Origin: an uncultured virus (IMG/VR IMGVR_UViG_3300028833_000062)
Taxonomy: Duplodnaviria > Heunggongvirae > Uroviricota > Caudoviricetes
Virus record (IMG/VR): IMGVR_UViG_3300028833_000062
Length of the DNA: 64,000 nucleotides
Direction: 5' to 3' (one strand)
Positions 15,075-55,804 of the stretch are shown piece after piece (the first letter of the stretch is position 1; each line of letters starts with the position of its first letter). The position numbers and the translations under genes were made by a program. The notes under the pieces are model-generated. The model saw only the letters and a program-made list of their open reading frames with translations. It ran no database searches and had not been told where the DNA came from.

Positions 15075-15107
15075 TTGAATTTTTTTAATATTATTCTATA
15101 TTATAAT
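15075..15107 (+). promoter_or_regulatory. early-type promoter
   Basis: TTGAAT-N15-CTATATTATAAT. Confidence 0.75.
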
Positions 15108-15124
15108 GTGATTATATAAATAAT

Positions 15125-18774: not shown

Positions 18775-18807
18775 AAACAGGAACTAATCATTAGTTCCTG
18801 TTTTTTT
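18773..18807. terminator. bidirectional terminator
   Basis: AAAAACAGGAACTAAT-c-ATTAGTTCCTGTTTTT. Confidence 0.8.
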
Positions 18808-19689
18808 ATATTCTATTTGTTTAGCATCATCATCTATTTTTATAAACATTTCTGCTTGTTTTTTCATTTTCTCTCCATTTTTACCAGATAAATCTTTTTT
18901 AACTTTAGGTAAATCTATTGGTTGTTTTTCTTTTAAAAATGAATCAACCATTTTTTCTTGATCAAATATAAATTTACCTTCTGAGTCTTTTTTAATTTTT
19001 ATTACTGGAGAAGTTTTATATTTACCACCTTGTATTCTACCATATCCAGCTGAATAACCAATCCATACTGTATCAATAAAATTATTAAAGTGAGGATATT
19101 TATTATTTAATAAATCTGTCAATGTTTTATATGCAGCTTTATGATTAGGTATTAAAACTGTTTCTTCATCAACATATCTATCTCTTACTCTATTATTTAT
19201 TTTAGCAACTTCTAAATTACAAAGAACCCAAACAAGAGTTACATTATATCCAAGAGTTTTGGCACGTGTTGCAATTTCAGTAATATCTTCTATTTTACCA
19301 GATACTCTATCAAAAAGAAGATTAGGAAGAATTTTTGAATTATTAGCTTCTTTATTTGGATTTTGTTTATTTCTAAATATCAAATTAATCTGTTTATCTT
19401 TCCAACCATGATCTTTAACTCTCATATGAAGTTCTGTAACATCTTCTGGATTTTTAAAATCAAAGTTTTTTAATTCATCTTTAAGTTTACCTTGATTTAA
19501 AAGTTTTATATATTTGCCTTTTAAATCATCAACATCATATGTTTTAAAATCAGCATCTATAATATTTTTTATAAATCCTTTTCCACTTCCAGGTCCACCA
19601 GCAAGAATAATACATTCACCATAAGTTGGTGTTTTCTTCTTAAAACCAACTACAGTATTTTCAAATATAAAATCTAATAATTTTTTCAT
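18784..19689 (-). CDS. P-loop kinase (zeta-toxin/AAA_33-like) with capsid-targeting-like N-terminus
   Basis: Walker A AGGPGSGKG, DVDD, LLFD, RVRDR lid; N-terminus MKKLLDFIFE. Confidence 0.75.
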   Translation of the reverse strand: MKKLLDFIFENTVVGFKKKTPTYGECIILAGGPGSGKGFIKNIIDADFKTYDVDDLKGKYIKLLNQGKLKDELKNFDFKNPEDVTELHMRVKDHGWKDKQINLIFRNKQNPNKEANNSKILPNLLFDRVSGKIEDITEIATRAKTLGYNVTLVWVLCNLEVAKINNRVRDRYVDEETVLIPNHKAAYKTLTDLLNNKYPHFNNFIDTVWIGYSAGYGRIQGGKYKTSPVIKIKKDSEGKFIFDQEKMVDSFLKEKQPIDLPKVKKDLSGKNGEKMKKQAEMFIKIDDDAKQIEYKKTGTND

Positions 19690-20167: not shown

Positions 20168-20558
20168 TTTTCTTAATTAAATAATCTATATATTTATTAC
20201 CATATCTTTTTCCTTTTTCTGGTAAAAAACTACCCTTTCTTATATATAAAGTATTTGATGAATTAATATTTTCTTTATCAATAAGATCTTTTATATCAAG
20301 AGTAATTTTTTTAAATCTATCTTCAGTAAGATTACTTGAAAATTCTAATCTTAAAAAATTAGCATCTCCCCAATCACTTCTTGTATATAAAGATTGTTTT
20401 TGAATATCTAATAATTCTATAGTATAATTTAATTTTGACTTTGAAAAATATTCTTTAATAACATCTTTTATAATATTAAATATATCATTATTAAAAGAAT
20501 TTTTTATATTCTTATTTAAATGTAATTTCTCTATTATATATTGACTTAAACTATTCAT
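20154..20558 (-). CDS. KLHL-leader family protein
   Basis: MNSLSQYIIEKLHLNKN. Confidence 0.75.
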   Translation of the reverse strand: MNSLSQYIIEKLHLNKNIKNSFNNDIFNIIKDVIKEYFSKSKLNYTIELLDIQKQSLYTRSDWGDANFLRLEFSSNLTEDRFKKITLDIKDLIDKENINSSNTLYIRKGSFLPEKGKRYGNKYIDYLIKKNEED

Positions 20559-21228
20559 GATACCAAGAAGGTGGATTTTTTTCTAAAGGACAATTATTAA
20601 ACATAAAACCCATATCAGTAACATTACTTACATCCCATTTAGATATATCTCCATTAAATTTTGATTTAGTAAACATATCAGACATACTTTTAACATTACT
20701 TACATCCCATTTAGATATATCTCCATTAAATTCAGATTTATAAAACATATCAGACATACTATTAACATTACTTACATCCCATTTAGATATATCATTATTA
20801 AATTGAGAATATTGAAACATTTTTTCCATATTAGTAACATTACTTACATCCCAATTAGATATATCTTGATTAAATTTAGACTCGGAAAACATACTTTTCA
20901 TATTAGTAACCTTGCTTACATCCCATTTTGATATATCTCCATTAAATGGAGAATATTCAAATATATGACTCATATCAGTAACATTACTTACATCCCATTT
21001 TGATATATCTCCATTAAAATTAATATTTTGTAATATACAGAACATATCAGTAATTTCACTAACATCAATATCATTTAAATCAGCATCATTTCCTCTTTCT
21101 TCAATTAACTTCTTAATTAAAGATCTAAGTTCATCTCTATCTTTAGGATGATAATGATATACTACTTTTTTAATATTATCTCTATTTAAATGTAACTTTT
21201 CTAATATATATGTATTAAGTTCTTTCAT
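20551..21228 (-). CDS. KLHL-leader protein with DUF285 (BspA-like) repeats
   Basis: Start 21228 MKELNTYILEKLHL; about 6 tandem 24-aa FNGDISKWDVSNVTxM repeats. Confidence 0.85.
   Translation of the reverse strand: MKELNTYILEKLHLNRDNIKKVVYHYHPKDRDELRSLIKKLIEERGNDADLNDIDVSEITDMFCILQNINFNGDISKWDVSNVTDMSHIFEYSPFNGDISKWDVSKVTNMKSMFSESKFNQDISNWDVSNVTNMEKMFQYSQFNNDISKWDVSNVNSMSDMFYKSEFNGDISKWDVSNVKSMSDMFTKSKFNGDISKWDVSNVTDMGFMFNNCPLEKNPPSWYHE
20600..21065 (-). repeat. 72-nt tandem coding repeats (DUF285)
   Basis: Recurrent ACATTACTTACATCCCATTT unit at about 72-nt period. Confidence 0.8.
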
Positions 21229-21248
21229 AAATGGCATATTCTTTATTA

Positions 21249-26593: not shown

Positions 26594-27763
26594 ATGCTTA
26601 TGAGAAATACAGGTGTTATTTCAATGGGTATCAAAACACCCATTATAAGAGAAGGAGATGATCTTGCTAAGATTGTTGTTAATTCTGTTCTTAATGCTAC
26701 TCTTGAAGATAGCAAATTTATAGATGTTCCTGATGAAACAACAAAATCTGGTTGGAGAATTGAAGAAGTAAAATCATATAATCTTAATGATAAAGATGTT
26801 ATTGGTATTACTGAAAGTGTAGTTGCAAGAAGTCTTGGTAATTATGTAACAGTTGATGATATTGGACTTGATCTTCAATTGAAATTTGGTTCAAATGTAA
26901 ATTATGTTATAGTAAATCCTATTTATAGTAGAAATAGGTTTAGTATGATTCTTAAGGCTATTGCAAGAGCTTCTAATAATCTTGTAGTAATATATATGCC
27001 AGATGCTGATGAGGTTGGTAATCCTTCTGGAGTAAATCAGTTTACTGGTGTAAATATGAAAGAATATTATACAGAACTTGTAAATAAAGAAAATAGAAAA
27101 TGTGTAATAATTGATCATTCTCTTGGAGATAATAGTGAAGAAGAAAAACAATATACAATTCCTAATGCTGTATATATTTATTGTGGTCTTCATGATTATG
27201 AGCAATGGAAAGAAGATTATGGTGATGATACACATATAACTCTTGCTGATATTTGTAAGAATAGATGTGATTACGGTCTTCTTGGTTCTAATAAAGCAAC
27301 TGAAGAGAAACTTAAACTTTTCCCTACTAGACAAACTTCTCAGGTTCTTGTTGAAAATGTTCAACAGATGATTTTTGATAAGACTGGTAAGAAAGTTGAA
27401 GTAATGGTTTATGGTGATGGTTGTTTCAAAGATCCTGTTGGCGGTATTTGGGAATTCGCAGATCCAGTAGTTTCTCCTGCATTTACTTCTGGCCTTGTAG
27501 GTACACCAAATGAAATTAAGATTAAGGCTTTCGCCGATGATAAATTTGCTAATCTTACTGGTGATGAACTTACATCAGCTCTTAAGAATGAAATTAAATT
27601 AAAGGATGCAAATCTTGTAGGTAACATGGCAGCTGAAGGAACTACTCCTCGTAGATTCACTGATTTACTTGGTTCATTAATGGACTTGACAAGCGGTAGT
27701 GGTGATAAGGGAACACCTGTTGTTCTTGTACAACATTACTTTGAAAATTATTCTATGGATTAA
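26594..27763 (+). CDS. CofE-like (F420-0:gamma-glutamyl ligase family) protein
   Basis: TPIIREGDDLA, GITESVVAR, YGDG..KDP..IWE.ADP, DLLGSLMDLTSGSGDKGTPVV. Confidence 0.8.
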   Translation: MLMRNTGVISMGIKTPIIREGDDLAKIVVNSVLNATLEDSKFIDVPDETTKSGWRIEEVKSYNLNDKDVIGITESVVARSLGNYVTVDDIGLDLQLKFGSNVNYVIVNPIYSRNRFSMILKAIARASNNLVVIYMPDADEVGNPSGVNQFTGVNMKEYYTELVNKENRKCVIIDHSLGDNSEEEKQYTIPNAVYIYCGLHDYEQWKEDYGDDTHITLADICKNRCDYGLLGSNKATEEKLKLFPTRQTSQVLVENVQQMIFDKTGKKVEVMVYGDGCFKDPVGGIWEFADPVVSPAFTSGLVGTPNEIKIKAFADDKFANLTGDELTSALKNEIKLKDANLVGNMAAEGTTPRRFTDLLGSLMDLTSGSGDKGTPVVLVQHYFENYSMD

Positions 27764-32567: not shown

Positions 32568-32612
32568 TTCATCTCTTTTTATTTTGAATTTTTTAAGTTA
32601 TATTCTATATTA
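32555..32612 (+). promoter_or_regulatory. terminator followed by early-type promoter
   Basis: AAGAGATG..CATCTCTT plus T-run; TTGAAT(32584)-N15-CTATATTA. Confidence 0.7.
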
Positions 32613-33191
32613 ATGATGTAATTAAAAAAAGATTTATGAAACAGATTATTATTTCAGCAGATTGTTCTATGTATAAAGACAAGGATATTATCCTTAAAAT
32701 TATTAAAAATGATATTATTCCTTTGATTAAATATCATTTTAAGGTTATATCTGTTAATATTGAAGATTCATTTATTAGAACTATTATCGATGTTAATGGT
32801 GTTGAACCTGAAAAGATGTCTTATATTGATATTGTAAATTATTGTAGAGATCTCTATCAGACTATATTGTATAATCATAAATATGATATTTCAGTTTCTT
32901 GTTATACTTAAATTTTATAAATATGTATATCTTAGTTAATAAATCAAGAATTCTTCTTGGTATTTTTACAGATAAAAACTGGCTTAATGCTGCTATTACT
33001 GCTCAGCGCAATGCATGTGGTGATGATGTTCTTTATTACCAAGAAATTATTCCAAATGAATTTAGTTCAGTTTTGATTAATTTCTGGACTATGCATCCTG
33101 AGAAATTGATTGAAATTTCTCCAGAAACTAAAAGTGTTTAATCTGAATTTTTAATATTTTTAACTATATTATATATGTAATTAGTTTAAAT

Positions 33192-35374: not shown

Positions 35375-35707
35375 ATGGAAAGAATTATTGCAGCTGCATA
35401 TAAAGTAAAACCAGAGTTTATTTGTAAAAGAGGTTCAGTTCGTAAAATAGGTATAGATGAAAAAGATGATATCTATCAGTGTAGAATTGGGCGACATCAT
35501 GCTGAAATTCTTCATATGTTTTATAAGGAAATAGATGAAACCACGTCAGGATTTTATACTTCTTATGGAAGATATGTTGATAGAAAAGAAGCAGCTAGAA
35601 TTGCTATAGAATCAGGACAGATTCAAAAGTGTCATTACTTTGGTGGTGAAGAACTTGATTCTAGTGATATATTTGATTTAGATTATGATGGTAAATTAAT
35701 TATATAA
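35375..35707 (+). CDS. conserved phage hypothetical protein
   Basis: GRHHAEI..GFYTS.GRYVDRKEA..IA. Confidence 0.7.
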   Translation: MERIIAAAYKVKPEFICKRGSVRKIGIDEKDDIYQCRIGRHHAEILHMFYKEIDETTSGFYTSYGRYVDRKEAARIAIESGQIQKCHYFGGEELDSSDIFDLDYDGKLII

Positions 35708-35709
35708 AA

Positions 35710-35765
35710 AGAGGAAATTTTTGAATTTCTTCTTTTATATTCTATATTATTAGTGTAATTAATTA
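35710..35765 (+). repeat. terminator-plus-promoter module, copy 1
   Basis: Near-identical to 37360..37415; hairpin contains TTGAAT. Confidence 0.8.
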
Positions 35766-36798: not shown

Positions 36799-37353
36799 AT
36801 GGAAATTTTAGTTGTTATTGATGCACAGAATGACTTTATTGATGGAAGTCTTAGGAATGAAGAAGCTATTAAAGCAGTTCCTAATATTGTAGAAAAAATT
36901 GATAATTTCGCTGGAGATGTAATTTATGTTACTCAAGATACTCATGATCCTGATTATCTTGATACTCCAGAAGGCAATAAGCTTCCTGTTGTTCATTGTG
37001 TAAACCGTTCTAATGGTTGGATGATTAATAGTGATGTTCAGGATGCTCTTAATGAAGCATATTCAAGAGGTATTGATGTAGTTTATGTTGAAAAGCCTAC
37101 TTTTGGTTCATTTGATCTTGTAGAATATCTTAAAGAAGATATCAATGAATGTGATGAAGATGAAAGTGTTAAGATTGAATTCGTTGGCTTTTGCACAGAT
37201 ATTTGTGTTGTAAGCAATGTTCTTATGGCAAAGGCTGCTTTCTTTGATAGGGCAAAAATTCAGGTAGATGGCTCTTGTTGTGCTGGTGTTACTCCAGAAT
37301 CTCATGAAGCAGCACTAACTACAATGCGAATGTGTCAAATTGATATTATTTAA
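36799..37353 (+). CDS. pncA: nicotinamidase (isochorismatase family)
   Basis: VIDAQNDFIDGSL, TQDTH, PVVHC, EKPTFGS, GFCTDICV (D-K-C triad and metal ligands). Confidence 0.88.
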   Translation: MEILVVIDAQNDFIDGSLRNEEAIKAVPNIVEKIDNFAGDVIYVTQDTHDPDYLDTPEGNKLPVVHCVNRSNGWMINSDVQDALNEAYSRGIDVVYVEKPTFGSFDLVEYLKEDINECDEDESVKIEFVGFCTDICVVSNVLMAKAAFFDRAKIQVDGSCCAGVTPESHEAALTTMRMCQIDII

Positions 37354-37359
37354 TTAAAT

Positions 37360-37415
37360 AGAGGAAATTTTTGAATTTCCTCTTTTTTATACTATATTAT
37401 TAGTGTAATTAATTA
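37360..37415 (+). repeat. terminator-plus-promoter module, copy 2
   Basis: AGAGGAAATTTTTGAATTTCCTCTTTT..CTATATTATTAGTGTAATTAATTA. Confidence 0.8.
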
Positions 37416-37440
37416 AAGTTAAACATCAAAGAAAAAGAAA

Positions 37441-37605
37441 ATGGCAAAGTTTAAGTTGAACAGTGAAGTTGAAAATCAGCCTCGTAAGAAGCATTCTACT
37501 AAGAAGGTTTATCGTGAAGATGATGATATGCGTGATTTCGCATATATGAGCCGCGGTAATGCAAAGAATGAACTTCGTCACCTTAAAGAAATGTACGGAA
37601 TCTAA
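37441..37605 (+). CDS. small basic early protein (54 aa, not in ORF track)
   Basis: MAKFKLNSEVENQPRKKHSTKKVYRED...; first ORF after the promoter, strongly expressed codon style. Confidence 0.65.
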   Translation: MAKFKLNSEVENQPRKKHSTKKVYREDDDMRDFAYMSRGNAKNELRHLKEMYGI

Positions 37606-37606
37606 T

Positions 37607-37897
37607 ATGGGACTCACGAAAGAACAGTGGAAAGAAAAACGTCTTAATGAACTTTATGACTATGTACAAAAATATGGTCATAAAGTTAAAGATGTTATAT
37701 ACTGGGACACATATCCTATTTGTGTAAAGGATATATGTGTCCTTGGTGTTGCTATATTTAATAATGAACTTGTTTTTTGTGATTATGATAAACATGAAAA
37801 TAAGTTCAGAATCCGCAGAGAATGTAAGAATGAAGAAAGAAAATATCTTGAAGAAGTTCTCCATGATATGAAACAACTTGATAAAAATAAGGCATGA
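37607..37897 (+). CDS. hypothetical protein
   Basis: Start ATG at 37607 directly after the stop at 37605. Confidence 0.65.
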   Translation: MGLTKEQWKEKRLNELYDYVQKYGHKVKDVIYWDTYPICVKDICVLGVAIFNNELVFCDYDKHENKFRIRRECKNEERKYLEEVLHDMKQLDKNKA

Positions 37898-38607
37898 AAC
37901 ACATTGAATTAGAATCAAAAGATGCTCGCAAGTTATTCGAATTAATGGATCGAGGTCTTGCTTATACAGATGCTTATTATAGAGATTATAAAGGTCAGCA
38001 AAGGATTTTTAATCTTATAGTAAAGCAGCTTAAAGAACAAGGCATGTTTAAAAATTATACGATTTACGAATAATATGAATGCATATGATAAAATGCTTCA
38101 AAAAGAAGCTGAAGAATGGTTTGAAGAATATGACCATGATACAACAACTGGTTTACTTCGAGATATGACAGGTGAACCTCTTGAAGATGAAGATGAAGAT
38201 AGTGAAATTTTTAAAATGACTGGAATATATTAATTATGCTTTATATTGATGGATTTGAAGGAACATGTCATACAATTCCTTCTATTGGAAAATTCAGTGT
38301 TGGAAAAACATATCATTTTAAAGAACATCAACTAAATGATATTGTTTTTATTATTTGTCGAGATGATAATAATGAAACATGTTCATTTTATGAATGGGCT
38401 GGATTTAATAAATATTTTAAAATTAATAATAATTAAAGTTGTTGATTAATATATTAATTATGACACTTAAAGAATTTAGAGAACTTACTAAAGATTGGCC
38501 TGAAGATGCACAAATAGATAAGTGGAATACTAATTATGGTTTTACTGTACTTAGTGAAGTTAAAATAGAAAAAATTAACGATAAAGATTATATAACTTTG
38601 TATTAAT

Positions 38608-39513
38608 ATGATTAAAGTTGGTAATTATAAAATTGAAGTAAAGCATTTTCCTGATGGTACACAATGCTTAATGAATATTGATTTTAATAAAATTGCAATT
38701 AATCCAAGTTATGCATCTATTACTTGGAATTATGAATCTGATGAAGAGCTTGTTACTCTTATTTATCTTGTAAATTATATTAGGAGTAAGGCACCTAAAT
38801 ATCCAATTTATCTTTTTATGCCTTATATTCCTAATGCAAGAATGGATAGGACAAAGAATCCTGGTGAAGTATTTACTCTTAAGTATTTTGCAAACATTAT
38901 CAATAGTCTTAATTTTGATTGTGTCAGTGTTCTTGATCCTCATTCTGATGTATCTGTTGCTCTTCTTAATAATGTTATGGTAATTAATCCTGATGATTAT
39001 ATTGCTAAAACCATTCAGACAATAAAAGATGCTAACAATATTGAGAATGATAAGGAAATTGTACTTTATTTTCCTGATGCTGGTGCATATAAAAGGTATA
39101 AGGATATTGAATGCCTAAAGCCTTATGAGAAGATTTACGGTCAGAAAGTTCGTGACTGGAATACTGGTAAGATTACTGGTCTTACTATTGTAGATAAGGA
39201 TAATAATACTATAATTGGATCATTTGAGAATAATTATATCCTCATGATTGATGATATTATTTCTTATGGTGGGACAATGTATTATTCTGCTGTTAAGATT
39301 AATGAATTTAATCCTAAGAAAATTTATGCTTATGCAACACATGTAGAGCCTAAGTCTTTCTGGGATATTGATAATGGTACTTTTAGAAAGGCATTTGGTT
39401 ATAGTAATAATGATGGTAGTGAAAATAAACAAATAGTAACAAAACTTTTTACTACAAATTCTATTTATAATATTGATGCAAATAATTCAGTAGTTCCAAT
39501 TACAATTAATTAA
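38608..39513 (+). CDS. ribose-phosphate pyrophosphokinase-like protein (possible ADPR-PP synthetase, Adps)
   Basis: HFPDGT, MPYIPNARMDR, LDPHS, FPDAGAYKRY, PRPP-binding loop MIDDIISYGGT. Confidence 0.85.
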   Translation: MIKVGNYKIEVKHFPDGTQCLMNIDFNKIAINPSYASITWNYESDEELVTLIYLVNYIRSKAPKYPIYLFMPYIPNARMDRTKNPGEVFTLKYFANIINSLNFDCVSVLDPHSDVSVALLNNVMVINPDDYIAKTIQTIKDANNIENDKEIVLYFPDAGAYKRYKDIECLKPYEKIYGQKVRDWNTGKITGLTIVDKDNNTIIGSFENNYILMIDDIISYGGTMYYSAVKINEFNPKKIYAYATHVEPKSFWDIDNGTFRKAFGYSNNDGSENKQIVTKLFTTNSIYNIDANNSVVPITIN

Positions 39514-39659
39514 ATATAAATATTATGAAGATACTTTTAGGAATTTTTATTGGAGTAGTAATTACTTTAATTATAGGTTTTTTGATTATTAAATATATGT
39601 TTAATGATATATGTGGAGGTATTTTAGAATTTATTTTAGATTTACCTAATCACTTTTAA

Positions 39660-39690
39660 TTGAAATAAAAAATAATGTATCTATATTATA
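39660..39690 (+). promoter_or_regulatory. early-type promoter
   Basis: TTGAAA-N15-CTATATTATA. Confidence 0.65.
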
Positions 39691-39715
39691 TTGTGAATTT
39701 TAAATAATAGAAAAT

Positions 39716-41266
39716 ATGGAAATTAATGCAATGCTTTTGAAGGATTTTTATAAGATGGTACATTTGTCTATGATTCCTTCTAACATGACAAAATCTGTTT
39801 CTTATTTTACTCCTCGTAAGAGTCGAGTAGATTTGTGGCCTAAGGTTGTTAATTTTGGTCTTCAAGCTTTCATTAAAGAGTGGTTGATTGATAATTTTAA
39901 TAAGACATTCTTCAATCGTTCAGAGGAAGATGTTGTAAATGAATATCGTCGTATTTGTGAAAATACTATGGTTAAGGAAAATTACGGCCTTGACCGTATT
40001 GTTGAACTTCATCGTCTTGGTTATCTTCCTATTGAAATTTGGGCTCTTCCTGAAGGTGTAGAAGTTCCTATGCATGTTCCTATTTTTGGTATTACTAATA
40101 CTCATCCTGATTTTGCTTGGCTTGGTCAGGCTCTTGAGAGTCTTATTTCTGCTGAGCTTTGGTACCCTATGATTACTGCTACTGTTGGTCATACTTATCG
40201 TAAGATTGTTGATGAGTGGTATGATAAAACAGTTGATGATAATGTTCCTCATCGCCGTGCTCTTGGAAACTTTGATTTCCGTGGAGATATGGGTGTAGAT
40301 GCAAGTCTTAAGGCTGCTGGTGGATGGCTTCTTTCATTTGTCAATACTGCAACTGTTCCTGCAATTCCTTGGATGGAAAAGATGTATAATTGTAACTGTG
40401 AAAAGGAAGAAGTTGGTTTTGGTGCTGTTTCTACTGAACATTTTGTAATGTGTTCTAATTCTGCACTTGATACCGTTCTTTATCCTGATGATGTATATGA
40501 ATATAAGGATATTGATCCTCACCGTGAAAGAGTTTTCATCAAGAAGCTTCTTACTGAGCTTTATCCTAATACTTCTTTCTCCTGTGTTTCTGATAGCTAT
40601 GATTATTGGAATGTAGTTGAGAATATCCTTCCTACTCTTAAAGATGAGATTCTTGCTCATAATGGTTGTATACTTGTCCGTGGTGACTCTGGAGATTGTG
40701 TAGATGTAGTTACTAAGACTGTATTTAAACTTTGGGATATCTTTGGTGGCACTGTAAACTCAAAGGGTTATAAGGTTCTGAATCCTCATATTAAGGCTCT
40801 TTATGGAGATTCTATTACTGTAGAACGTGCCTGGAGAATTTTCTCTATTCTTGAGGAAAATGGTTTTGCTGCAAATAATGTTTCTCTTGGTGTAGGTAGT
40901 TTCAGTATGCACTGTATTGAGGAAGATGGAATGTTAAAGCCTTTTACTCGTGATACTTTCTCTTCTGCAATTAAGGCTGTTTATGCAGAGTTTACTGATG
41001 AAGATGGAAATATCATTCCTATGAATGTATATAAGGATCCTAAGACTGACCGTGATACTGGAGCAGGATTTAAGAAGAGTCAGAAGGGTTGTTGTGTTGT
41101 ATTTAAGGATGAAAATGGTGAATATCAATATACAGATGAACATGATTGGCTTCACGCTTCTAATTCTTATATTCAGGAACTTCGTCCTATCTTTAGAAAT
41201 GGTGAACTTCTTGTAGATGAATCTCTTAATGATATTCGTCAGAGACTTAATGAAAATAAATTTTAA
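39716..41266 (+). CDS. NAMPT/NadV-family phosphoribosyl- or ADP-ribosyl-transferase
   Basis: DFYKMVH, NFDFRG, STEH, VSDSYD, VRGDSGD, LYGDSIT, GVGS, TRDTF, KDPKTD..KKSQKG. Confidence 0.9.
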   Translation: MEINAMLLKDFYKMVHLSMIPSNMTKSVSYFTPRKSRVDLWPKVVNFGLQAFIKEWLIDNFNKTFFNRSEEDVVNEYRRICENTMVKENYGLDRIVELHRLGYLPIEIWALPEGVEVPMHVPIFGITNTHPDFAWLGQALESLISAELWYPMITATVGHTYRKIVDEWYDKTVDDNVPHRRALGNFDFRGDMGVDASLKAAGGWLLSFVNTATVPAIPWMEKMYNCNCEKEEVGFGAVSTEHFVMCSNSALDTVLYPDDVYEYKDIDPHRERVFIKKLLTELYPNTSFSCVSDSYDYWNVVENILPTLKDEILAHNGCILVRGDSGDCVDVVTKTVFKLWDIFGGTVNSKGYKVLNPHIKALYGDSITVERAWRIFSILEENGFAANNVSLGVGSFSMHCIEEDGMLKPFTRDTFSSAIKAVYAEFTDEDGNIIPMNVYKDPKTDRDTGAGFKKSQKGCCVVFKDENGEYQYTDEHDWLHASNSYIQELRPIFRNGELLVDESLNDIRQRLNENKF

Positions 41267-41522
41267 TTATGAGTATTGTTTGGAAAAATATTGACAATCT
41301 TCATTGTTACAGTGGAGAAACCAGACCTCAAGATGGGGCTGCACTTATTGCAAAGGTTAAATATATTGGAATGAATGATGTTCCATATTATGAATTTAGA
41401 CTTTGTAAGTATGATGAAAGAAATGATGATGTTTGGGACACTGAAAGAGATTATTGTGGAAGTATTCCATTTGATAGAGTGATTAGTTGGATTTATCAAT
41501 CTGAATTAAGTGATTTAATGTA

Positions 41523-41972
41523 ATGAATCATCCATATAATACAGAAGGACTTTTCAATAGACTAATGAGAGAGTATCTGGAATATGATACTCTCTATATT
41601 GGTTTTGATTTTGACAATACTATTTGGGATTATGATACTTATAAAAACAATTATGATCCTAAAAATACTGATGCACAATTTACTGAAGTAATTGAACTTC
41701 TTAAACTTTGTAAACAAGCAGGAATGAAACTTTGTCTTTGGACAAGTTGTCCATCTCAAGAGGAAGAAGATAAGAAAGTAGAAATTTGTAAAGAATGGGG
41801 AATTGAACCAGATTATATCAATTGTTCTCCTCTTTCTCCAGGTGCTAAGAAACCTCATTTTAATGTTCTTCTTGATGATAAAGCTGGTCTTGAAGCTGTT
41901 TATCATGTTCTTAGTAAACTTCTTTTAATAAATGCTACATATAATTATATGAATAAAGATAATGTATCATGA
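41523..41972 (+). CDS. HAD-superfamily phosphatase
   Basis: GFDFDNT (motif I), LWTS, KP..LLDDKAG. Confidence 0.75.
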   Translation: MNHPYNTEGLFNRLMREYLEYDTLYIGFDFDNTIWDYDTYKNNYDPKNTDAQFTEVIELLKLCKQAGMKLCLWTSCPSQEEEDKKVEICKEWGIEPDYINCSPLSPGAKKPHFNVLLDDKAGLEAVYHVLSKLLLINATYNYMNKDNVS

Positions 41973-42397
41973 ATATAAATGAAAATATAATTATAACAGG
42001 ATTTGGACCAAATGATTATAAAACTTTTTATGTACCAGATACATTTAAGTTTATTATAATTAGAGAAATTACTTTACTTAAAGATTGTTATGATGAACAA
42101 GAAGTACATTATTTTGATATCAAAAAATCAAAAATTCCAGAAGGAACAACACTTAAAATAAAATATAGATGGACTAATCTTTATGGTGTATTCTATAGAT
42201 GTGAATACAATGGAGAAACATATGATATTAATAGAGCAGATTGTAAAGAAGGACCATTATGTATAGGTAATTTTATTGGCTTACTTCCAGAAAATTATGG
42301 TGAAGGTCTTTGGGATAAAAGAGATTGGGATCCAAGAGAAGCTGGATATCAAGAAATTGATTTGGAAGAATATATTGAAAAAGTAAAGAAAAGTTAA
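41969..42397 (+). CDS. hypothetical protein
   Basis: ORF within an operon. Confidence 0.6.
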   Translation: MNINENIIITGFGPNDYKTFYVPDTFKFIIIREITLLKDCYDEQEVHYFDIKKSKIPEGTTLKIKYRWTNLYGVFYRCEYNGETYDINRADCKEGPLCIGNFIGLLPENYGEGLWDKRDWDPREAGYQEIDLEEYIEKVKKS

Positions 42398-42421
42398 AGA
42401 AATAAATATCTATATTAATAT

Positions 42422-43270
42422 ATGAAAGGTATAAAAGATTTTTTAAAAGATAAACATAATTCACATGATATTGAATATTGGTCTAAAGAAAATCATTTAT
42501 TAAATGATATAAATGAATTTTTTGGAGAAGATATTCCTATTTATATAAAAGAAAAATTAATGAATGATGAATATGTTGATTACATCTATGAAAATCTTAA
42601 ATCTCATGATGCTGAAAAATTAAAGAAAAAATTAAAGAAAGAGTATGGTGATAGTATAAGTTTTCAGGATTATTCAGGTAAAGAAAAGAAATCTTTTATA
42701 ATTATACTTAATGATGATAATCTTCTTGATTTTTATAATCCAGATAATGATGAAAATGCTAATTTTGAGAAGATTGAAAAATTCAATAATATATTAAGTT
42801 TCTTTAATTATTATGTTTCATATAATGATGAAGATAAAGGAAAGAAATATCTTTTTATTGAACCAAGATATTCAGATAATGTAAGTGATGAAGTATTTAA
42901 TTCTCATAAATATATTTATCATTTTACAGATAAATCTTCAGGAAGGAAAATATTAGAAACTGGATTAAGAATTAGAAAATCAGATTATAGAGAATATCCA
43001 CAAAGAATATTTCTTTATGTTACAGATAAGAAGATAGAAGATGATATAGAAAATATATCTAAATTTATACTTAAAGTATGTAATGGACATTTGATAAAAA
43101 GATATGGTTTATCTATATTAAGAATTGAAAATAATGGTAAATTAGATTTATATAATGATACAGCAATGGAAGAAGATGAAGCTGTATTTACATACAATAA
43201 TATTCCATATCAATATATAAAGAAAGTTAATGTTAATTTAACTTATGAAGATTTAATTAAATATAAGTAA
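42422..43270 (+). CDS. putative ADP-ribosyltransferase-fold (Tpt1/KptA-like) protein
   Basis: C-terminal domain YHFT..KILETGL..RIFLY..ILRI..AVFT.NNIP. Confidence 0.55.
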   Translation: MKGIKDFLKDKHNSHDIEYWSKENHLLNDINEFFGEDIPIYIKEKLMNDEYVDYIYENLKSHDAEKLKKKLKKEYGDSISFQDYSGKEKKSFIIILNDDNLLDFYNPDNDENANFEKIEKFNNILSFFNYYVSYNDEDKGKKYLFIEPRYSDNVSDEVFNSHKYIYHFTDKSSGRKILETGLRIRKSDYREYPQRIFLYVTDKKIEDDIENISKFILKVCNGHLIKRYGLSILRIENNGKLDLYNDTAMEEDEAVFTYNNIPYQYIKKVNVNLTYEDLIKYK

Positions 43271-43818
43271 ATTATGAGTTTTCCAAAAAGAAATATAAAA
43301 AAATCAGATCCAAGTGATACTGATTTTAAAATAAAAAGACTTATTGAAGGAGATACTTTCTATAATTATAATGGAGAATTAAATCATATAGTTCATTTAT
43401 TTGCTGATAAAAATATTGATATTGTAGTTTATAAACATTGGAATCCATCTAGAGGGTGGTTATATGAAGCAGATACTCTTGAATTAGTTTTATATAGAAT
43501 TTGTTTACTTTATAAAAATTTAGCTGATAAATCTAAATCAAATAATTTAAGAAAGAAATTTTTTGAATTGAATAATATTTCATATGAAGGTTATTGATTG
43601 TTTTGGAAAGGAGTTAAAAGATGGTGATGATATTCTTATAGCTAGATATGATGAGAATATGTTACCAATTATAAATTGTGGAATTATTCTTGAGATGACA
43701 GATAAATATATGGTTTATTCTGTACAAGAATGGAAAGGAGATGATGAGATAATAACTAATATAAAAGTATCATTTAAAGATAATTGTCAATTTAAAGATA
43801 TATATAAAATAAGATAAT

Positions 43819-44307
43819 ATGTTTACTAAAGCAGAAAGATCAAGTTTCCCATATTGGTTTGCACACTGGGCAGCCTATCAAATGACTGCATTAAATTGTA
43901 AAGCATGGAAATTCAAATATTTATTCCATGATGCAGAAAAGCCTTGGTTGAAGTTGTTTTTACCATATAAGAAGGTTCAGACAATTCATAGGAAGACTAA
44001 TAAACATCATCCAGAATGGTTGGAGAACAAACTTGAAGAAATGATAAATAAACATGAAGGTATTGGTTCATATGATGTATTCAAATTTTTAAATAAGTTT
44101 GATTATGAAGGAGCAATTCTTGATTGGGAATGTTGTCATTTTACAAAAGTAGAAGAACCACTTGATGCACATGATGAATATAAAAGATTACTTAATCATG
44201 ATACTTTTAGTAAGAAATATCCATGTATAACTAAATATTGTTATAATGAATTTAGTAAAAGATTAATAGATGCTATAAAAAAATTAGGACTTGAAAATGA
44301 ATATTAA
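43819..44307 (+). CDS. HD-like (DUF5662-type) phosphohydrolase
   Basis: H..HDAEK..HRKTNKHHPEW..ILDWE. Confidence 0.6.
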   Translation: MFTKAERSSFPYWFAHWAAYQMTALNCKAWKFKYLFHDAEKPWLKLFLPYKKVQTIHRKTNKHHPEWLENKLEEMINKHEGIGSYDVFKFLNKFDYEGAILDWECCHFTKVEEPLDAHDEYKRLLNHDTFSKKYPCITKYCYNEFSKRLIDAIKKLGLENEY

Positions 44308-44656
44308 TTTAGAACCATCAATAATACCTTATGATAATGGAGTAATTGAAATATGTTTTAGTCCAGAATTTCAAAGGATATATGATGCAGAGGTTGATTA
44401 CATAGATTATATAATGGATTGTCATTATGAAGATCCTATTCATTGTAAAATATTTACTTTTAAAGATATTTATCAATTTAATAAAGAGATAGAAGATTTA
44501 AAAGACATGTTTAGATTTGAAATGATGAATTCATATACAATTGAAGCAATTAAAGTTAAAGTAATGGATTTATGTAATAAATTTATAAATGGTAGTATGA
44601 TGGCAAAATCCAGTGATTACTATTTTATGTGGGACAATCAAAAAAATTATTAAGAT

Positions 44657-45418
44657 ATGAAATTTAATGTAGAAAAAGCAACTGAAGGAATTATTAAATG
44701 GATTCAGAATTGGTTTGATAAAAATGGTAAAGGATGTAATGCAGTAATCGGTATCAGTGGAGGTAAAGATAGTACTGTATGTGCAGGACTTCTTGTTAAG
44801 GCTCTTGGAAAAGATAGAGTAATTGGTGTACTTATGCCTAATGGAGGACAAGCAGATATTAATGATTCATATAAAGTATGTGATTTTCTTGGTATTAATA
44901 AATATGTTATTAATATTGAACAAGCATATCAACATATTCTTCGTAGTATGGTATTTAATTTAATAAATGTTTCAAAACAGACAGAAGAAAATCTTCCTCC
45001 AAGACTTAGAATGAGTGTTCTTTATGCTGTTTCTCAGTCTGTAAATGGTAGAGTATGTAATACATGTAATCTTTCTGAAGATTGGGTAGGTTATTCTACT
45101 CGTTATGGTGATAGTGTTGGAGATTTCAGTCCTCTTAGCAATTATACAGTTACTGAAGTAAAAGAGATTGGACATTATCTTGGTCTACCTGCTGAACTTG
45201 TTGATAAAACTCCTATTGATGGACTTTGTGGAAAATCTGATGAAGAAAATCTTGGATTTACTTATGCTGAGCTTGATCAGTATATTAGAAATGGTATTCT
45301 TCCTTCACCTGAAAAGAAAAAAATAATTGATGATAAACATGTTAAGAATGCATTCAAACTTTGTTTAATGCAAGTAGCTCCTCAATATGGATATCCAGAA
45401 ACTTTAAATTATGATTAA
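44657..45418 (+). CDS. nadE: NH3-dependent NAD+ synthetase
   Basis: GISGGKDS, GVLMP, NL.PRLRM, TCNLSE..VGY.T.YGD, KTP.DGL, DE.NLG.TY..LD; no glutaminase domain. Confidence 0.92.
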   Translation: MKFNVEKATEGIIKWIQNWFDKNGKGCNAVIGISGGKDSTVCAGLLVKALGKDRVIGVLMPNGGQADINDSYKVCDFLGINKYVINIEQAYQHILRSMVFNLINVSKQTEENLPPRLRMSVLYAVSQSVNGRVCNTCNLSEDWVGYSTRYGDSVGDFSPLSNYTVTEVKEIGHYLGLPAELVDKTPIDGLCGKSDEENLGFTYAELDQYIRNGILPSPEKKKIIDDKHVKNAFKLCLMQVAPQYGYPETLNYD

Positions 45419-45654
45419 TAAAGAAGACCTTTTAAAATATATAGATGAATCTCTTGATGATTTAGAAGATGAACAAGAATATAATGAACATTTATATAAA
45501 GCAGGAGATAATCCATATTGGGTACCAAAAGATAAAGGTCATCTACCATTAGATAGTTGGTATGGATATGAATCTTTAATTTTACAATTAGAAAATTTAA
45601 AGAAAAGAATACTTAAAGAAGATTTTAGTTATTCTTGGAAGAAAAGAGAATATA

Positions 45655-45687
45655 AAAAAGAGGAAGATTAAACTTCCTCTTTTTTTA
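45655..45687. terminator. bidirectional terminator
   Basis: AAAAAAGAGGAAG-attaaa-CTTCCTCTTTTTT. Confidence 0.8.
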
Positions 45688-47087: not shown

Positions 47088-47427
47088 TTGCTCTAAAATT
47101 ATTTATATCATCTGCATGTAATTCTTTAATTCCATTTTTATTTGCCCATTCTCTTGGTGATTCATTATTTAAATCAGTAGGAGTAAAATTATCCCATCGT
47201 TCAATAAATTCATCAACTAAATCTTCAGGAGATACAAATATATAATGATTTCCCAACTTTCCTCTGTTGGTATCCATATAATTAACAATTGCTCTTAAAG
47301 AATTTAATACAACATGACCTTCATCTGTTCTACCAGTTCTAAAAAATAATATATATTTATTATCTTCTATAACAATATTTTTATTAAGATGAAGTTTTTC
47401 TATTATATATTGTTTTAAATTATTCAT
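47071..47427 (-). CDS. KLHL-leader family protein
   Basis: MNNLKQYIIEKLHLNKN. Confidence 0.75.
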   Translation of the reverse strand: MNNLKQYIIEKLHLNKNIVIEDNKYILFFRTGRTDEGHVVLNSLRAIVNYMDTNRGKLGNHYIFVSPEDLVDEFIERWDNFTPTDLNNESPREWANKNGIKELHADDINNFRANEKNR

Positions 47428-47890
47428 GATACCAAGATGGCTTTTTTATTAAATTTGGACAATTATTAAACATATCATTTGTTTTTACATCTTTATTAAT
47501 TTTCCATTCTTCTAATCCTTTACCAGTAAATGAATCACAATTAGCAAACATTCCTGTCATATCTTTTACATTAGATACATCCCATAGTGATAAATCACAA
47601 TTAAACCAATCTGCCCAAGAAAACATACAATTCATTGATACACAGTTTGATACATCCCATTTAGAAATATCAATATTTTTACAATCACTTCCATTAAATA
47701 CTGAATCTAAATTTTTAATATTACTTACATCAATGCAATTCAAATCAGCATTTTTATTATTTTTAGTTAGTTTTTCAATTAAATCTACTAATTCATCTTT
47801 ATTTTGTGGATAATATTTATAATGAGAATTAACATTAATATCTTTATTTAAATGTAATTTTTCTAATATATAATTATTTAATTGTTTCAT
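47420..47890 (-). CDS. KLHL-leader protein with DUF285 repeats
   Basis: MKQLNNYILEKLHLNKD; WDVSN repeats; C-terminus PSWYHE as in 20551..21228. Confidence 0.82.
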   Translation of the reverse strand: MKQLNNYILEKLHLNKDINVNSHYKYYPQNKDELVDLIEKLTKNNKNADLNCIDVSNIKNLDSVFNGSDCKNIDISKWDVSNCVSMNCMFSWADWFNCDLSLWDVSNVKDMTGMFANCDSFTGKGLEEWKINKDVKTNDMFNNCPNLIKKPSWYHE

Positions 47891-53244: not shown

Positions 53245-53595
53245 ATGGAATTAGTAAAGGTAAACTGTTTGTTATTTACTTCAATACAAGATGATACATA
53301 TCGTGGAGCTAAAACTAGACTTACTGAATTTGCAACAAATTATATAAAGGATAATAATGGATATGATATGCTATTAAATGTAGATAGTATTGTATCTGTT
53401 TCTGAAATTAGTTATAAAACTGTTGCTGGTAAAAGAATATATGGTTTTTATGTATTGACTAATAACAACTATAAATATTGGATAATAAATAATGAAAATA
53501 ATTATGGTCCATTAGAGTCTTTTATATTTAAAAAGGATGATAAAAAACTTATAATTAAACCTGATGAAAAGTTACATCTTAATAAAAAGAGATAA
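53245..53595 (+). CDS. hypothetical protein
   Basis: LLNVDSIVSV strand; C-terminus EKLHLNKKR. Confidence 0.65.
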   Translation: MELVKVNCLLFTSIQDDTYRGAKTRLTEFATNYIKDNNGYDMLLNVDSIVSVSEISYKTVAGKRIYGFYVLTNNNYKYWIINNENNYGPLESFIFKKDDKKLIIKPDEKLHLNKKR

Positions 53596-53936
53596 TGAGT
53601 AAAAGAATAGTCATATTTCTAGATGATTATCGTAAACCTAATAAGTATGTAAACATGAATTTAAATCGTGTTTACCAGGCTTATTCATATAAGGATTTTA
53701 TTGATTTAGTAAATAATCTATATAGAAAATATAATACTATTGATGAGGTATGGTTTGACCATGATCTTGGTCCAGTAGATCAAGGTAATGGTCTTGATTG
53801 TGCAAAATATCTTGTAAATTTTTGTATTGAAAATAATATGACTCTTCCACAGTATCATATTCAATCTGCTAATTCTGTTGGTAAGGCTAATATAGATTCT
53901 TATTTAAAATCATATCTAAAAAGTTTAACATTATAA
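53595..53936 (+). CDS. cyclic-phosphate-processing receiver-like domain protein
   Basis: IFLDDYR, FDHDLG, GLDCAKYL, IQSANSVG. Confidence 0.75.
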   Translation: MSKRIVIFLDDYRKPNKYVNMNLNRVYQAYSYKDFIDLVNNLYRKYNTIDEVWFDHDLGPVDQGNGLDCAKYLVNFCIENNMTLPQYHIQSANSVGKANIDSYLKSYLKSLTL

Positions 53937-53971
53937 TTTCTATATTAATATAACAATATTGCGATTTATTA

Positions 53972-54490
53972 ATGTTAGAATTAAAATATTCATATAAAAA
54001 TTTCTTTGAATGGTATAAAGAAGAACATGCAAAATGGGATAAAGAAAATCCTCATGATATGTATGATTGTGGAATAAGTAAAGAGATGTTTAAGTATTTC
54101 ATTTTGCAATATCTTTATGATGGACCTATTACAGCTACTGATTATGATAAATTAAAAGATATTCTTATAAAACATTCTAAAAGATATTTTAAAGAATGTT
54201 TATATTTAAAATTTTTACATAAAGAATATAAACCTAAAGCAAGAGATGATTTTGATGAATATTTGAATAAAAAATATGAAAATTTCAATACTCGTTTTGA
54301 TAATAGTAAATATAATCAAATATCAGATGAAGTATTTGTTGAATACTGTCAATTATATTTAGATGGTTTTTATTTATCAGAAGATCCAATAAGTACATCA
54401 CAATATGATTTGAATTCTTTACATGATATACTTATTAAACATTCAAAAAGATTTAAAATAGAAAAATATTTATATCAATTATTTAAATGA
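53972..54490 (+). CDS. hypothetical protein with internal duplication
   Basis: IS.E.F....QYL(Y)DG..L.DILIKHSKR occurs twice. Confidence 0.65.
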   Translation: MLELKYSYKNFFEWYKEEHAKWDKENPHDMYDCGISKEMFKYFILQYLYDGPITATDYDKLKDILIKHSKRYFKECLYLKFLHKEYKPKARDDFDEYLNKKYENFNTRFDNSKYNQISDEVFVEYCQLYLDGFYLSEDPISTSQYDLNSLHDILIKHSKRFKIEKYLYQLFK

Positions 54491-54790
54491 ATAAACTAAA
54501 AAATTATGATAATAATTTTATAGAAATACAATATATATATTATAATGATCATGATAAATTTTGTCCTCTTACAGAACAACAAGATTTTATTTTTATTGAA
54601 ACAAATATAAATCCTAATTATATAATTGAAATAACTAAGCCAAAATTATCAAATTTATCTGTAAAAGGATATTATTCAACTTATTCTAGAACTATTGAAA
54701 AAGTATATTTTACAATATTTTTATCAAACAATAGAAAATTATATTTATTAGAAGATCAATACGATAAATTTAAACATTTAATATACAATA

Positions 54791-55804
54791 ATGAATAACG
54801 ATAAGAAATACTTGATTATTTATCATTTTGAAGATAATGATGGTTGTTGCTCTTGTGCAATTATGAAATATTATCTTGTAAATGAGCTTGGTGTTGATGA
54901 GAATAATATTACACTTTTTGGTGCGAATTATGCTATACTTTCTAAAGTATATGCTGATAATTTTAATTTTATCTTAAATAAGAAAGAATATAATATTCTT
55001 GATTTTGATTCTGTTATAATGACAGATATTTCTTTCAATGATTTTAATGCTATAAAAACTCTTTATGAAGAGTTTGGTAATAATTTTACTTGGATTGATC
55101 ATCACGCACCAATTATTACAGAAAGTATAAAAAGAAAATATGATACTCTTATTAATGGTGTAAGAGATACTCATCGTTCTGCACTTCTTAATGCTTATAA
55201 GTATTGTTATGATCCTCTTGATATCAAATATACTAATGGTGAAGCTCCTTATCTTTTAAGAGTACTTTCTGCTTGGGATAGTTTTACATTTGAAAGTGAA
55301 GGAATTGATTTTGAATATGCAAGAAAAGTAAATATGGGATTTACTTCTTGGTATAAACTTAATACAGATATTTGGTATAATAATATTGGTAATTTTATCA
55401 ATGGTACATATGAATTTAATAAATCATATGCTGATGAAGGATGTAAACTTGGAAAGAAAGAAGCTGATGAATATGATAAAAGAAATGAAAGTATAATCAA
55501 GAATTTTGGAATGTCAGGATTCACTGTAGATGGTCGCCCGGCGATGCTTCTTTTTATGTCTGAAGGCACTTCTAGCCTTATCTTTAAGTCTGTATCGGAT
55601 AAATATAAAAATGGCATCTGCGCTAAAACATCGCCTACTGGAAATATTATAATATCTCTTTATAATACTGATAGAATGGATCATACTTTCCATTGTGGAA
55701 CTTATCTTCATGATAAATATGGTGGAGGTGGTCATGAAGGTGCAGCAGGTACTACAATTACTATTGAACAGTTTAATAAGATTCTTAAAACAAAAACTTT
55801 ATAA
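54791..55804 (+). CDS. DHH/DHHA1 phosphoesterase
   Basis: YH..DNDG, MTDIS, WIDHH, GGGGHEGAAG. Confidence 0.88.
   Translation: MNNDKKYLIIYHFEDNDGCCSCAIMKYYLVNELGVDENNITLFGANYAILSKVYADNFNFILNKKEYNILDFDSVIMTDISFNDFNAIKTLYEEFGNNFTWIDHHAPIITESIKRKYDTLINGVRDTHRSALLNAYKYCYDPLDIKYTNGEAPYLLRVLSAWDSFTFESEGIDFEYARKVNMGFTSWYKLNTDIWYNNIGNFINGTYEFNKSYADEGCKLGKKEADEYDKRNESIIKNFGMSGFTVDGRPAMLLFMSEGTSSLIFKSVSDKYKNGICAKTSPTGNIIISLYNTDRMDHTFHCGTYLHDKYGGGGHEGAAGTTITIEQFNKILKTKTL

Follow-up and report, generated by a model that had tools for sequence, protein, structure and literature searches.

A 64,000-nucleotide stretch of DNA from an uncultured virus of the Caudoviricetes (IMG/VR record IMGVR_UViG_3300028833_000062), in the following called the window, raises the question why two genes resembling a known phage pathway for the restoration of NAD+ should be accompanied by genes for a nicotinamidase and an NAD synthetase. 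Depletion of NAD+ is a common end-point of antiphage defense, and the main known answer of phages is pathway 1 of NAD+ reconstitution (NARP1); it consists of the enzymes Adps and Namat and is found in phages such as SPbetaL1 and Bas63 (bioRxiv 10.1101/2024.02.11.579819; PMC12774641; PMC13586617). A preliminary description of the window had placed a nicotinamidase (PncA), a Prs-like enzyme, an enzyme of the NAMPT family and an NAD synthetase (NadE) within 8.6 kb, and all four could be confirmed, all of them on the + strand:

36799-37353, + strand: PncA, nicotinamidase of 184 amino acids (Pfam Isochorismatase, 72 bits)
38608-39513, + strand: Adps-like Prs paralog of 301 amino acids (phrog_619, E 2.7e-59), directly upstream of the transferase gene
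39716-41266, + strand: Namat-clade transferase of 516 amino acids (NAMPT_N plus NAPRTase domains)
44657-45418, + strand: NadE, NH3-dependent NAD synthetase of 253 amino acids (PF02540, NAD_synthase, 160 bits)

The reading to which we give somewhat better than an even chance is that this cassette represents a nicotinate-type (“deamidated”) NARP1, which would generate NAD+ from ADP-ribose (ADPR) via nicotinate and nicotinic acid adenine dinucleotide (NaAD). A rebuilding of NAD+ via nicotinic acid appears probable because the transferase has lost residues that bind nicotinamide and, at the same time, is linked to a nicotinamidase as well as to an NAD synthetase.

The best matches of the transferase among solved structures are 9w5x and 9w5w (352 bits) and 9ke8 (275 bits); human and Xanthomonas Nampt reach about 135-139 bits. 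The PDB title of 9w5x reads merely “nicotinamide phosphoribosyltransferase”, however, the structure probably represents Namat of SPbetaL1, since the alignment is consistent with the published numbering of its residues and with the motifs encoded by the SPbetaL1 gene. The nicotinamide pocket of Namat is formed by Phe189, Arg192, Asp215, Ala242, Arg306, Asp13′ and Tyr15′, with Asp215 forming a hydrogen bond to nicotinamide and the exchange D215A cutting NAD+ production 8.1-fold (PMC12774641). For human NAMPT, a review citing Khan et al. describes Asp219 as the residue that defines substrate specificity (PMC7096376). The motifs singled out in the preliminary description had been read correctly, with SFVNTAT of the window protein pairing with SFTGTDT of Namat and GNFDFRG pairing with HDFSMRG. 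In this alignment, Asp215 of Namat (human Asp219) corresponds to Ala212, Ala242 to Ser239 and the glycine two residues before Asp215 to Asn210.

The pocket was compared between 109 sequences of this kind (Ala/Ser-type) and 85 canonical sequences. At the Asp215 site, 94 of the Ala/Ser-type proteins contain Ala and 15 contain Ser, whereas Asp or Glu is found in 85/85 canonical ones. The Ala242 site is occupied by Ser in 109/109 and by Ala in 85/85 sequences, respectively, and the glycine before Asp215, retained in 85/85 canonical proteins, is N, K or R in 108/109 of the others. The other five pocket residues (equivalents of F189, R192, R306, D13′ and Y15′) are invariant in both groups, and the window protein possesses the complete catalytic core (His245, Arg306, Asp308, Phe189, Arg192, Asp13 and Tyr15), which is unchanged in 109/109 Ala/Ser-type sequences. 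As judged from the alignment, both residues that face the amide group of nicotinamide are thus replaced in the transferase, namely Asp215 by Ala and Ala242 by Ser.

The residues of the adenine clamp were tied to the use of ADP-ribose pyrophosphate (ADPR-PP) in the Namat paper (PMC12774641). Arg40 of the SCL clamp corresponds to Arg37 in the window protein and is an arginine in 93/109 Ala/Ser-type sequences, while the equivalent of Phe392 is a phenylalanine in 108/109 with T-R-D intact. The first aromatic residue of the SCH motif and the TRD are both intact in the window protein as well, and a motif of canonical length is found in phAss-1, a TAG-recoded gut phage, alone. In three phage Nampts taken as outgroup, the SCL loop is shorter and the Phe392 site is occupied by Gly.

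The descent of the transferase was examined in a FastTree phylogeny with SH-like supports, comprising 34 representatives with less than 60% identity and rooted with the three phage Nampts. The Ala/Ser-type rows and phAss-1 formed one clade (seven rows, support 98) near the SPbetaL1-type branch and nested inside the Adps-linked Namat group, which in turn was separated from Nampt with a support of 100. The transferase hence descends from Namat and not from Nampt. The Ala/Ser change looks like one old event, as it is confined to a single clade within the ADPR-PP-using lineage and was retained down to 31% identity. A second origin of the change in phAss-1, which sits on a long branch, was considered and rejected: once the outgroup is added, phAss-1 joins the main clade with a support of 98, which makes a single origin the simpler explanation.

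In a next layer of evidence, the gene neighborhoods of the transferase were surveyed. A set of 205 loci with Nampt-family genes, made up of 38 close relatives, the best 80 matches to the window protein, the best 80 matches to SPbetaL1 Namat and seven deposited phages, was reduced by 12 duplicate contigs to 193 unique viral loci, which were scored within flanks of 8-10 kb using profiles built from PncA, Adps and NadE of the clade. PncA, Adps and NadE were all found nearby in 97/108 Ala/Ser-type loci. By contrast, 0/85 Asp/Glu-type loci contained PncA and 0/85 contained NadE, with Adps being present in 76/85. The co-occurrence of the Asp215-substituted variant with pncA and nadE, which the preliminary description had put forward as a check, is therefore borne out, and the joint presence of the four genes, seen in 97/108 related viral loci and in 65/80 bacterial loci (see below), is not due to chance. 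Among the 11 incomplete Ala/Ser-type loci, six are truncated by the end of the contig, three carry the missing gene just beyond the flank (PncA in G002, NadE in G010 and G012) and one, L035, which contains no NadE, stems from a record rated 54% complete. The commonest order in the relatives is PncA, Adps, transferase and NadE, back to back, so that PncA homologs adjoin the transferase and NadE homologs lie directly 3′ of it; all four genes were present in 35/38 close relatives. Among 50,697 deposited phage records, PncA of the cassette type was found in 7, NadE in 43 and Nampt-family genes in 1,954. One of the seven PncA records is phAss-1, whose gene order is identical, and the available part of the phAss-1 paper merely tabulates the nicotinamidase and discusses no pathway.

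A subgroup of loci shows a different arrangement. In L117 (4629-15135; also in L118, L120 and L133), PncA, transferase and NadE are followed by an open reading frame (ORF) of 296 amino acids, a PurA-like adenylosuccinate synthetase gene, a divergent Adps and an IMPDH/GMP-reductase-like gene, with a NADAR-domain protein being encoded upstream. The divergent Adps of this group is located three genes downstream (phrog_619, E 6.2e-37).

The gene directly upstream of the transferase is of the Adps type according to score, PP loop and phylogeny, and a corresponding activity is predicted. No NCBIfam model for Prs reaches its cut-off with this protein, the best one yielding 75.2 bits (cut-off 296) and TIGR01251 73.6 bits (cut-off 113). 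Aligned to SPbetaL1 Adps it scores 107 bits at 31% identity, compared to 54.7 bits for the best solved Prs. Its PP loop, DDIISYGGT, is similar to DDLSSFGGT of SPbetaL1, while the solved Adps described in PMC13586617 differs somewhat in this loop (D-D-I-C-D-x-A-A-S) and is nearer to the Klebsiella phage form. Lys185 and Asp212/213, as published for this solved Adps (PMC13586617), have counterparts in the window protein, and K180, D215/D216, H112 and D157 of the latter are kept in 159-160 of 163 sequences. In the Adps tree, a single clade (support 98) next to the SPbetaL1-type Adps unites 12/14 Ala/Ser-linked representatives and contains the window protein, and the Adps of the L117 group belongs to the same lineage as that of canonical Glu-type NARP1 phages (support 100). 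The Adps tree mirrors the transferase tree.

An alignment of PncA to the pyrazinamidase/nicotinamidase of P. horikoshii (1ilw) revealed that the Asp-Lys-Cys triad (D8, K99 and C136) and the metal site D-x-H...H (D47-x-H49 and H66) are preserved, and all six of these residues are invariant in 89/89 distinct homologs from related loci. The NCBIfam model for PncA yielded only 22.6 bits with the window protein (cut-off 174). NadE exceeds the cut-off of TIGR00552 (161.7 bits, cut-off 63.65) and contains the SGG-x-DS loop; PF02540 is its sole Pfam domain, and a CN-hydrolase/glutaminase domain was not found in it. Its best solved relative is 2e18 (122 bits).

The gene set is not restricted to viruses. 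The best 80 matches among bacterial contigs from a collection with one genome per species (genome_contigs) come nearly all from Clostridia of the gut or rumen (among them Lachnospiraceae, Ruminococcus and Oscillospiraceae); a few are from metagenome-assembled genomes (MAGs) labeled otherwise, such as a Nanosyncoccus bin and a Bacteroides bin. All 80 loci (80/80) encode Ala and Ser at the two pocket sites, and all four genes are present in 65/80. Pseudoruminococcus massiliensis, a cultured isolate, carries the genes in the order PncA, Adps-like, transferase, NadE and NrtR (Nudix plus winged helix), with NadE being a glutamine-dependent form of 648 amino acids. Since this locus lies between AgrB and asd/dapA, it is chromosomal. 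The cassette is therefore a chromosomal operon of gut Clostridia, to which NrtR is adjacent in the single locus whose annotation extends to that point, and a phage origin of the gene set, as implied in the preliminary description, has to be given up. ADP-ribose is the effector of NrtR and releases it from DNA (PMC2330246). In common with classical NrtR operons, pncA comes first and nadE last with NrtR beside them, nicotinate would be an intermediate and NaAD the substrate of the last step. What differs is that an Adps-like and Namat-like pair occupies the position of pncB-nadD, that this pair would bypass nicotinic acid mononucleotide (NaMN) and that the ADP-ribosyl moiety would come from ADPR and not from phosphoribosyl pyrophosphate (PRPP) plus ATP. 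No pncA-prs-nadV-nadE operon appears in the available part of the NrtR paper (PMC2330246).

Two bacterial-collection loci deviate from this arrangement. In L230 (5941-10319), from a Ruminococcus MAG, PncA, Adps, an ORF of 117 amino acids and the transferase are followed not by NadE but by a macro-domain protein of the microbial PARG type. The closest match in the bacterial collection (L216, 67% identity to the window transferase; MAG labeled Candidatus Nanosyncoccus) lies on a 66-kb contig in a Saccharibacteria-type MAG bin, with Adps and NadE beside the transferase and no PncA in the available part; it may be a mis-binned phage contig.

From the observed gene identities, residue changes, linkage and phylogeny we infer the following enzymatic steps and, by analogy to NARP1, a role of the cassette in counter-defense. 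Nicotinamide released by the cleavage of NAD+ would be deamidated by PncA to nicotinate and NH3, while ADPR, the other cleavage product, would be converted by the Adps-like enzyme together with ATP to ADPR-PP and AMP. The Namat-derived transferase would then join nicotinate and ADPR-PP to NaAD under release of pyrophosphate, without NaMN or an adenylyltransferase being involved, and NadE would finally form NAD+ from NaAD, ATP and NH3. On this route, phages would have taken up a gene set of gut Clostridia, presumably to restore NAD+ after NADase-type defense. Whether the formation of NaAD from nicotinate and ADPR-PP underlies an ADP-ribose-sensing NAD+ recycling native to gut Clostridia, which would bypass NaMN and NadD and would have been captured repeatedly by their phages (including jumbo and TAG-recoded ones) as counter-defense against NAD+-depleting immunity, is in our view evenly balanced.

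With NARP1 the cassette shares the adjacent pair of a Prs-like and a Nampt-like gene, the position of the transferase inside the Namat radiation, the catalytic His, the ribose/phosphate residues, the clamp residues R40, F392 and TRD, as well as the PP loop and the Lys185 equivalent of Adps. It departs from NARP1 in the replacement of Asp215 by Ala and of Ala242 by Ser, in an insertion in the SCH motif, in the company of PncA and NadE (absent from all 85 canonical Namat loci) and in its predicted product, which would be NaAD instead of NAD+.

A route via NaAD would need no adenylyltransferase, and the preliminary description had reported none for NMN or NaMN (nicotinamide and nicotinic acid mononucleotide, respectively). 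This holds: a PF01467 domain is absent from the 110 ORFs of the window (16 at E ≤ 0.01 and 94 at E ≤ 1e-4), the same ORFs contain no second NAPRTase-family protein of the PncB type, and a Pfam scan of the window yielded no Nmnat, PnuC or NadR domain. PF01467 is likewise missing from G004 (161.8 kb) and phAss-1 (136 kb), both of them complete records, and its match in G002 is CoaD (134.7 bits). At the loci that seemed to lack Adps (L114 and the L117 group), no adenylyltransferase was found in its place, which speaks neither for nor against the route. Two further proteins are relevant here:

42422-43270, + strand: ORF of 282 amino acids with an ADP-ribosyltransferase fold, no Pfam or PHROG match (AlphaFold2 model, mean predicted local distance difference test score 81)
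L055 889-2136, equal to G003:C1:65159-66403: NadM-like protein of 415 amino acids with a C-terminal nucleotidyltransferase domain

The first of them is the only unannotated ORF between transferase and NadE that would be long enough for a hidden adenylyltransferase, and this candidate is ruled out by its fold: the top 22 matches of a Foldseek search against the PDB are without exception structures of Tpt1/KptA or DarT (E from 1.1e-4, probability 0.57-1.00, with TM scores of just 0.22-0.41), so that the modeled structure is most compatible with an NAD+-using ADP-ribosyltransferase of the Tpt1/KptA/DarT kind. The ORF stands outside the conserved cassette, having no homolog in the 38 close-relative loci. 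Elsewhere, 45 homologs were found, some of them on contigs of up to 442 kb, and together with two RNA ligases of the window (5876-6814 and 12013-13125) the modeled protein may form an RNA-repair set.

The second protein leads to the observations that weigh against a synthesis of NAD+ via NaAD. The window covers just a portion of a larger genome, and G003, which contains the closest relative of the transferase (72% identity), encodes this 415-amino-acid protein with weak similarity to NadM-type NMNAT (28 bits). Two of its motifs are presumably NMNAT signatures; its gene lies about 56 kb from the G003 cassette, and neither the window nor G001, G002 or G004 contains a homolog. Furthermore, Ala or Ser at the Asp215 site would signify the loss of amide recognition and not the gain of nicotinate use. 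The use of ADPR-PP is not assured either, because the clamp consensus is interrupted: instead of GS-x-Phi-x-Phi-x-Phi-TRD, the SCH segment of the window protein reads GSFSMHC, followed by a nine-residue insertion (IEEDGMLKP) and F-TRD, the insertion is longer in some relatives, the second aromatic residue (equivalent of Y396) is displaced and the 15 Ser-type proteins carry Met at the R40 site. As the linkage traces to one clade, it reflects one retained evolutionary origin and not many independent events, and it accordingly counts only once; in addition, L114 is without Adps within the flank. In the window, the cassette genes are dispersed and do not form one tight operon, with eight other ORFs separating the transferase from NadE and a terminator-like hairpin directly 3′ of PncA. 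Finally, NadD is encoded in 5/5 host genomes, so that a PRPP route via NaMN is always open, and two of these genomes (G005 and G006) are without canonical PncB, for which reason the transferase could serve them as nicotinate phosphoribosyltransferase.

Several of these points favor Preiss-Handler salvage completed by host NadD, the main rival, in which the Prs-like enzyme would supply PRPP, the transferase would form NaMN and NadD of the host, or a phage NMNAT, would act before NadE. Besides NadD in all five hosts, the missing PncB in 2/5, the clamp motif broken by the insertion and the NMNAT-like protein of G003, it can draw on the acceptance of PRPP by SPbetaL1 Namat in vitro (PMC12774641) and on the NCBIfam model PRK09198 (“nicotinate phosphoribosyltransferase”), which the transferase matches with 410.5 bits at a cut-off of 405, though canonical Asp-type phage proteins bear the same name in deposited records. 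Nevertheless, we consider this explanation rather unlikely: the Prs-like protein scores below every NCBIfam cut-off for Prs and groups with validated Adps, the hosts already possess canonical Prs (5/5; 168-390 bits, beside the Adps paralog) and in part canonical PncB (3/5; about 560 bits), the transferase derives from ADPR-PP-using Namats with R40 and F392 conserved, where Nampts have Gly at the F392 site, the operon adjoins the ADPR sensor NrtR, and complete phage genomes bearing the cassette do so without an adenylyltransferase.

It is also conceivable, if improbable, that the transferase has remained a canonical NARP1 enzyme converting nicotinamide and ADPR-PP to NAD+, with PncA and NadE feeding a separate nicotinate route of the host type or removing excess nicotinamide. 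The intact catalytic core and Adps partner would permit this, and D215A in SPbetaL1 Namat caused an 8.1-fold drop and no abolition of activity (PMC12774641). However, PncA would then consume the substrate of the transferase, NadE would be left without a substrate supplied by the cassette, two pocket residues and not just one are replaced in 109/109 sequences, and neither PncA nor NadE accompanies any of the 85 canonical Namats. Lower still ranks a Francisella-like order, in which nicotinate would be converted to NaMN, then by NadE to NMN and finally by an NMN adenylyltransferase of host or phage to NAD+; we regard it as very unlikely. The second-best solved relative of NadE, 3fiu (114 bits, close to the 122 bits of the best one), is the Francisella enzyme that amidates NaMN (NMN synthetase), and the NadM-like protein of G003 would fit this order, too. 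On the other side, neither the window nor the two complete cassette-bearing genomes encode an adenylyltransferase, NadE of the P. massiliensis cassette is the glutamine-dependent 648-amino-acid form, and the Adps partner would be left without a role. Taken together, the route from PncA over the Adps-like and Namat-like enzymes to NadE, as proposed in the preliminary description, stands as the best-supported reading of the comparative evidence, given the descent from Namat, the intact adenine-clamp residues, the replacement of both amide-facing residues and the linkage in 97/108 versus 0/85 loci; it falls short of proof on account of host NadD and the NMNAT-like protein in a relative.

The label of a “third NARP” that had been attached to the cassette cannot be kept, as NARP3 is already in use for PnuC plus NadR (PMC13464706), and the resistance of NaAD to host NADases that was also suggested there is a mere conjecture. 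NARP2 (Nampt plus Nmnat) and NARP3 are likewise phage-encoded routes of NAD+ restoration, however, the window contains no Nmnat, NadR or PnuC domain and its transferase is not of the Nampt type. An extended NARP1 has been described in which Adpp, a macro-domain phosphatase, acts on ADPR-1′′-phosphate (bioRxiv 10.64898/2026.01.28.702374). As far as this source was available, the likeness to the present cassette consists in accessory enzymes that have been added to the NARP1 core and broaden its range of substrates, and in a small phosphatase-like gene recurring beside the core; the difference is that the enzymes added here, PncA and NadE, would act on the pyridine half and that the phosphatase-like ORF is of the HAD type and not a macro domain. 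A description of the pathway or of the enzyme reaction was not found in the searchable literature, although members of the Ala/Ser type might be contained, without being remarked on, in supplementary operon tables and in the figure of the Namat phylogeny. In the accessible text of the NARP1 preprint (bioRxiv 10.1101/2024.02.11.579819), the terms NadE, PncA, nicotinamidase, nicotinic acid, deamidated and NAD synthetase do not occur. A literature search by terms yielded no co-mention of Namat with nicotinamidase or NAD synthetase, and the co-mentions of Namat and NadE were chance matches, “NadE” being an author name in one relevant paper among the matches listed. A review of November 2026 names, in its available part, only NARP1, NARP2 and the phosphatase-extended NARP1.

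If the proposed route is correct, it would add a new reaction to NAD+ metabolism, the direct synthesis of NaAD from ADPR-PP by a “nicotinate ADP-ribose transferase”, and it would imply that two residues in the pocket can switch the specificity of a Namat. The route would also explain why a subset of the Nampt/Prs pairs of phages travels with PncA and NadE, and abundant gut Clostridia would use the same route, beside the ADP-ribose sensor NrtR in at least one cultured isolate. The combination of Ser at the Ala242 position with either Ala or Ser at the Asp215 position offers a simple annotation rule for telling the two kinds of cassettes apart in metagenomes, which is relevant for predicting the defense systems that gut phages can overcome.

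With a G+C content of about 26%, closely packed genes and phage-type genes (a gp32-like protein, two RNA ligases, ThyX and glycosyltransferases), the source of the window is a large low-GC phage. No tRNA genes were found in the window, and its 70 promoter-like sites are not enriched compared to a mean of 82.9 in shuffles. Among virus records, the one nearest to the window is G001, a viral contig of 168 kb with a rated completeness of 59%, which has 38% of sampled 31-letter words in common with it. With the 8.6-kb cassette region G001 shares only short intergenic repeats, and profile searches of this record revealed no gene for PncA, NadE or PF01467; a megablast search of the 8.6-kb region against the phage collection yielded no match. 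Further features of the window are:

5876-6814 and 12013-13125: two RNA ligases
17806-18396, + strand: standalone NUDIX protein of 196 amino acids (58.9 bits)
18784-19689, - strand: Zeta-toxin-like kinase domain (30 bits)
20551-21237, - strand, and 47420-47890, - strand: two DUF285 repeat proteins
26594-27763, + strand: F420-0:gamma-glutamyl ligase-like protein (141.5 bits)
37360-37383, + strand: terminator-like palindromic hairpin, a stem of 10 pairs followed by a T run
41523-41972, + strand: HAD-type phosphatase-like ORF of 149 amino acids (TIGR01681, 31 bits, under the cut-off; phrog_1238, E 2.4e-16)
53595-53936, + strand: cREC_REC cyclic-phosphate-processing receiver domain
53972-54490, + strand: Tad8-like type II Thoeris inhibitor domain (E 1.5e-7)
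54791-55804, + strand: DHH phosphoesterase domain, just below the cut-off

The three ORFs from 53595 to 55804 may form an anti-Thoeris or signal-degrading cluster, as suggested by their domains. The NUDIX protein could act on ADP-ribose or related nucleotides and is not linked to the cassette. A role of the cassette in counter-defense fits this neighborhood, as the Tad8-like, the cyclic-phosphate-processing receiver and the NUDIX proteins are encoded in the same window.

Homologs of the HAD-type phosphatase-like ORF occur in 17/108 Ala/Ser-type and in 12/85 Asp/Glu-type loci, which makes it a recurrent accessory gene of such cassettes. In L042 and L043 (ORF from 11461), a HAD-type phosphatase-like domain and NadE are apparently fused, and in other loci a separate HAD-like ORF is located between transferase and NadE. 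Two ORFs of 162 and 120 amino acids just 5′ of NadE (43819-44653, + strand) match no family; their homologs are found at the same position in a 393-kb phage (L009, 17423-18248), with 49% and 84% identity, respectively, in the best blastp segment. Finally, the sequence behind PncA belongs to a repeat element, with 37345-37415 being 90% identical to 35695-35765. The palindromic intergenic element, which was scored as an intrinsic terminator, is also present at 45654-45685, 15070-15120 and 32582-32631, and similar stretches are found at several sites of G001.

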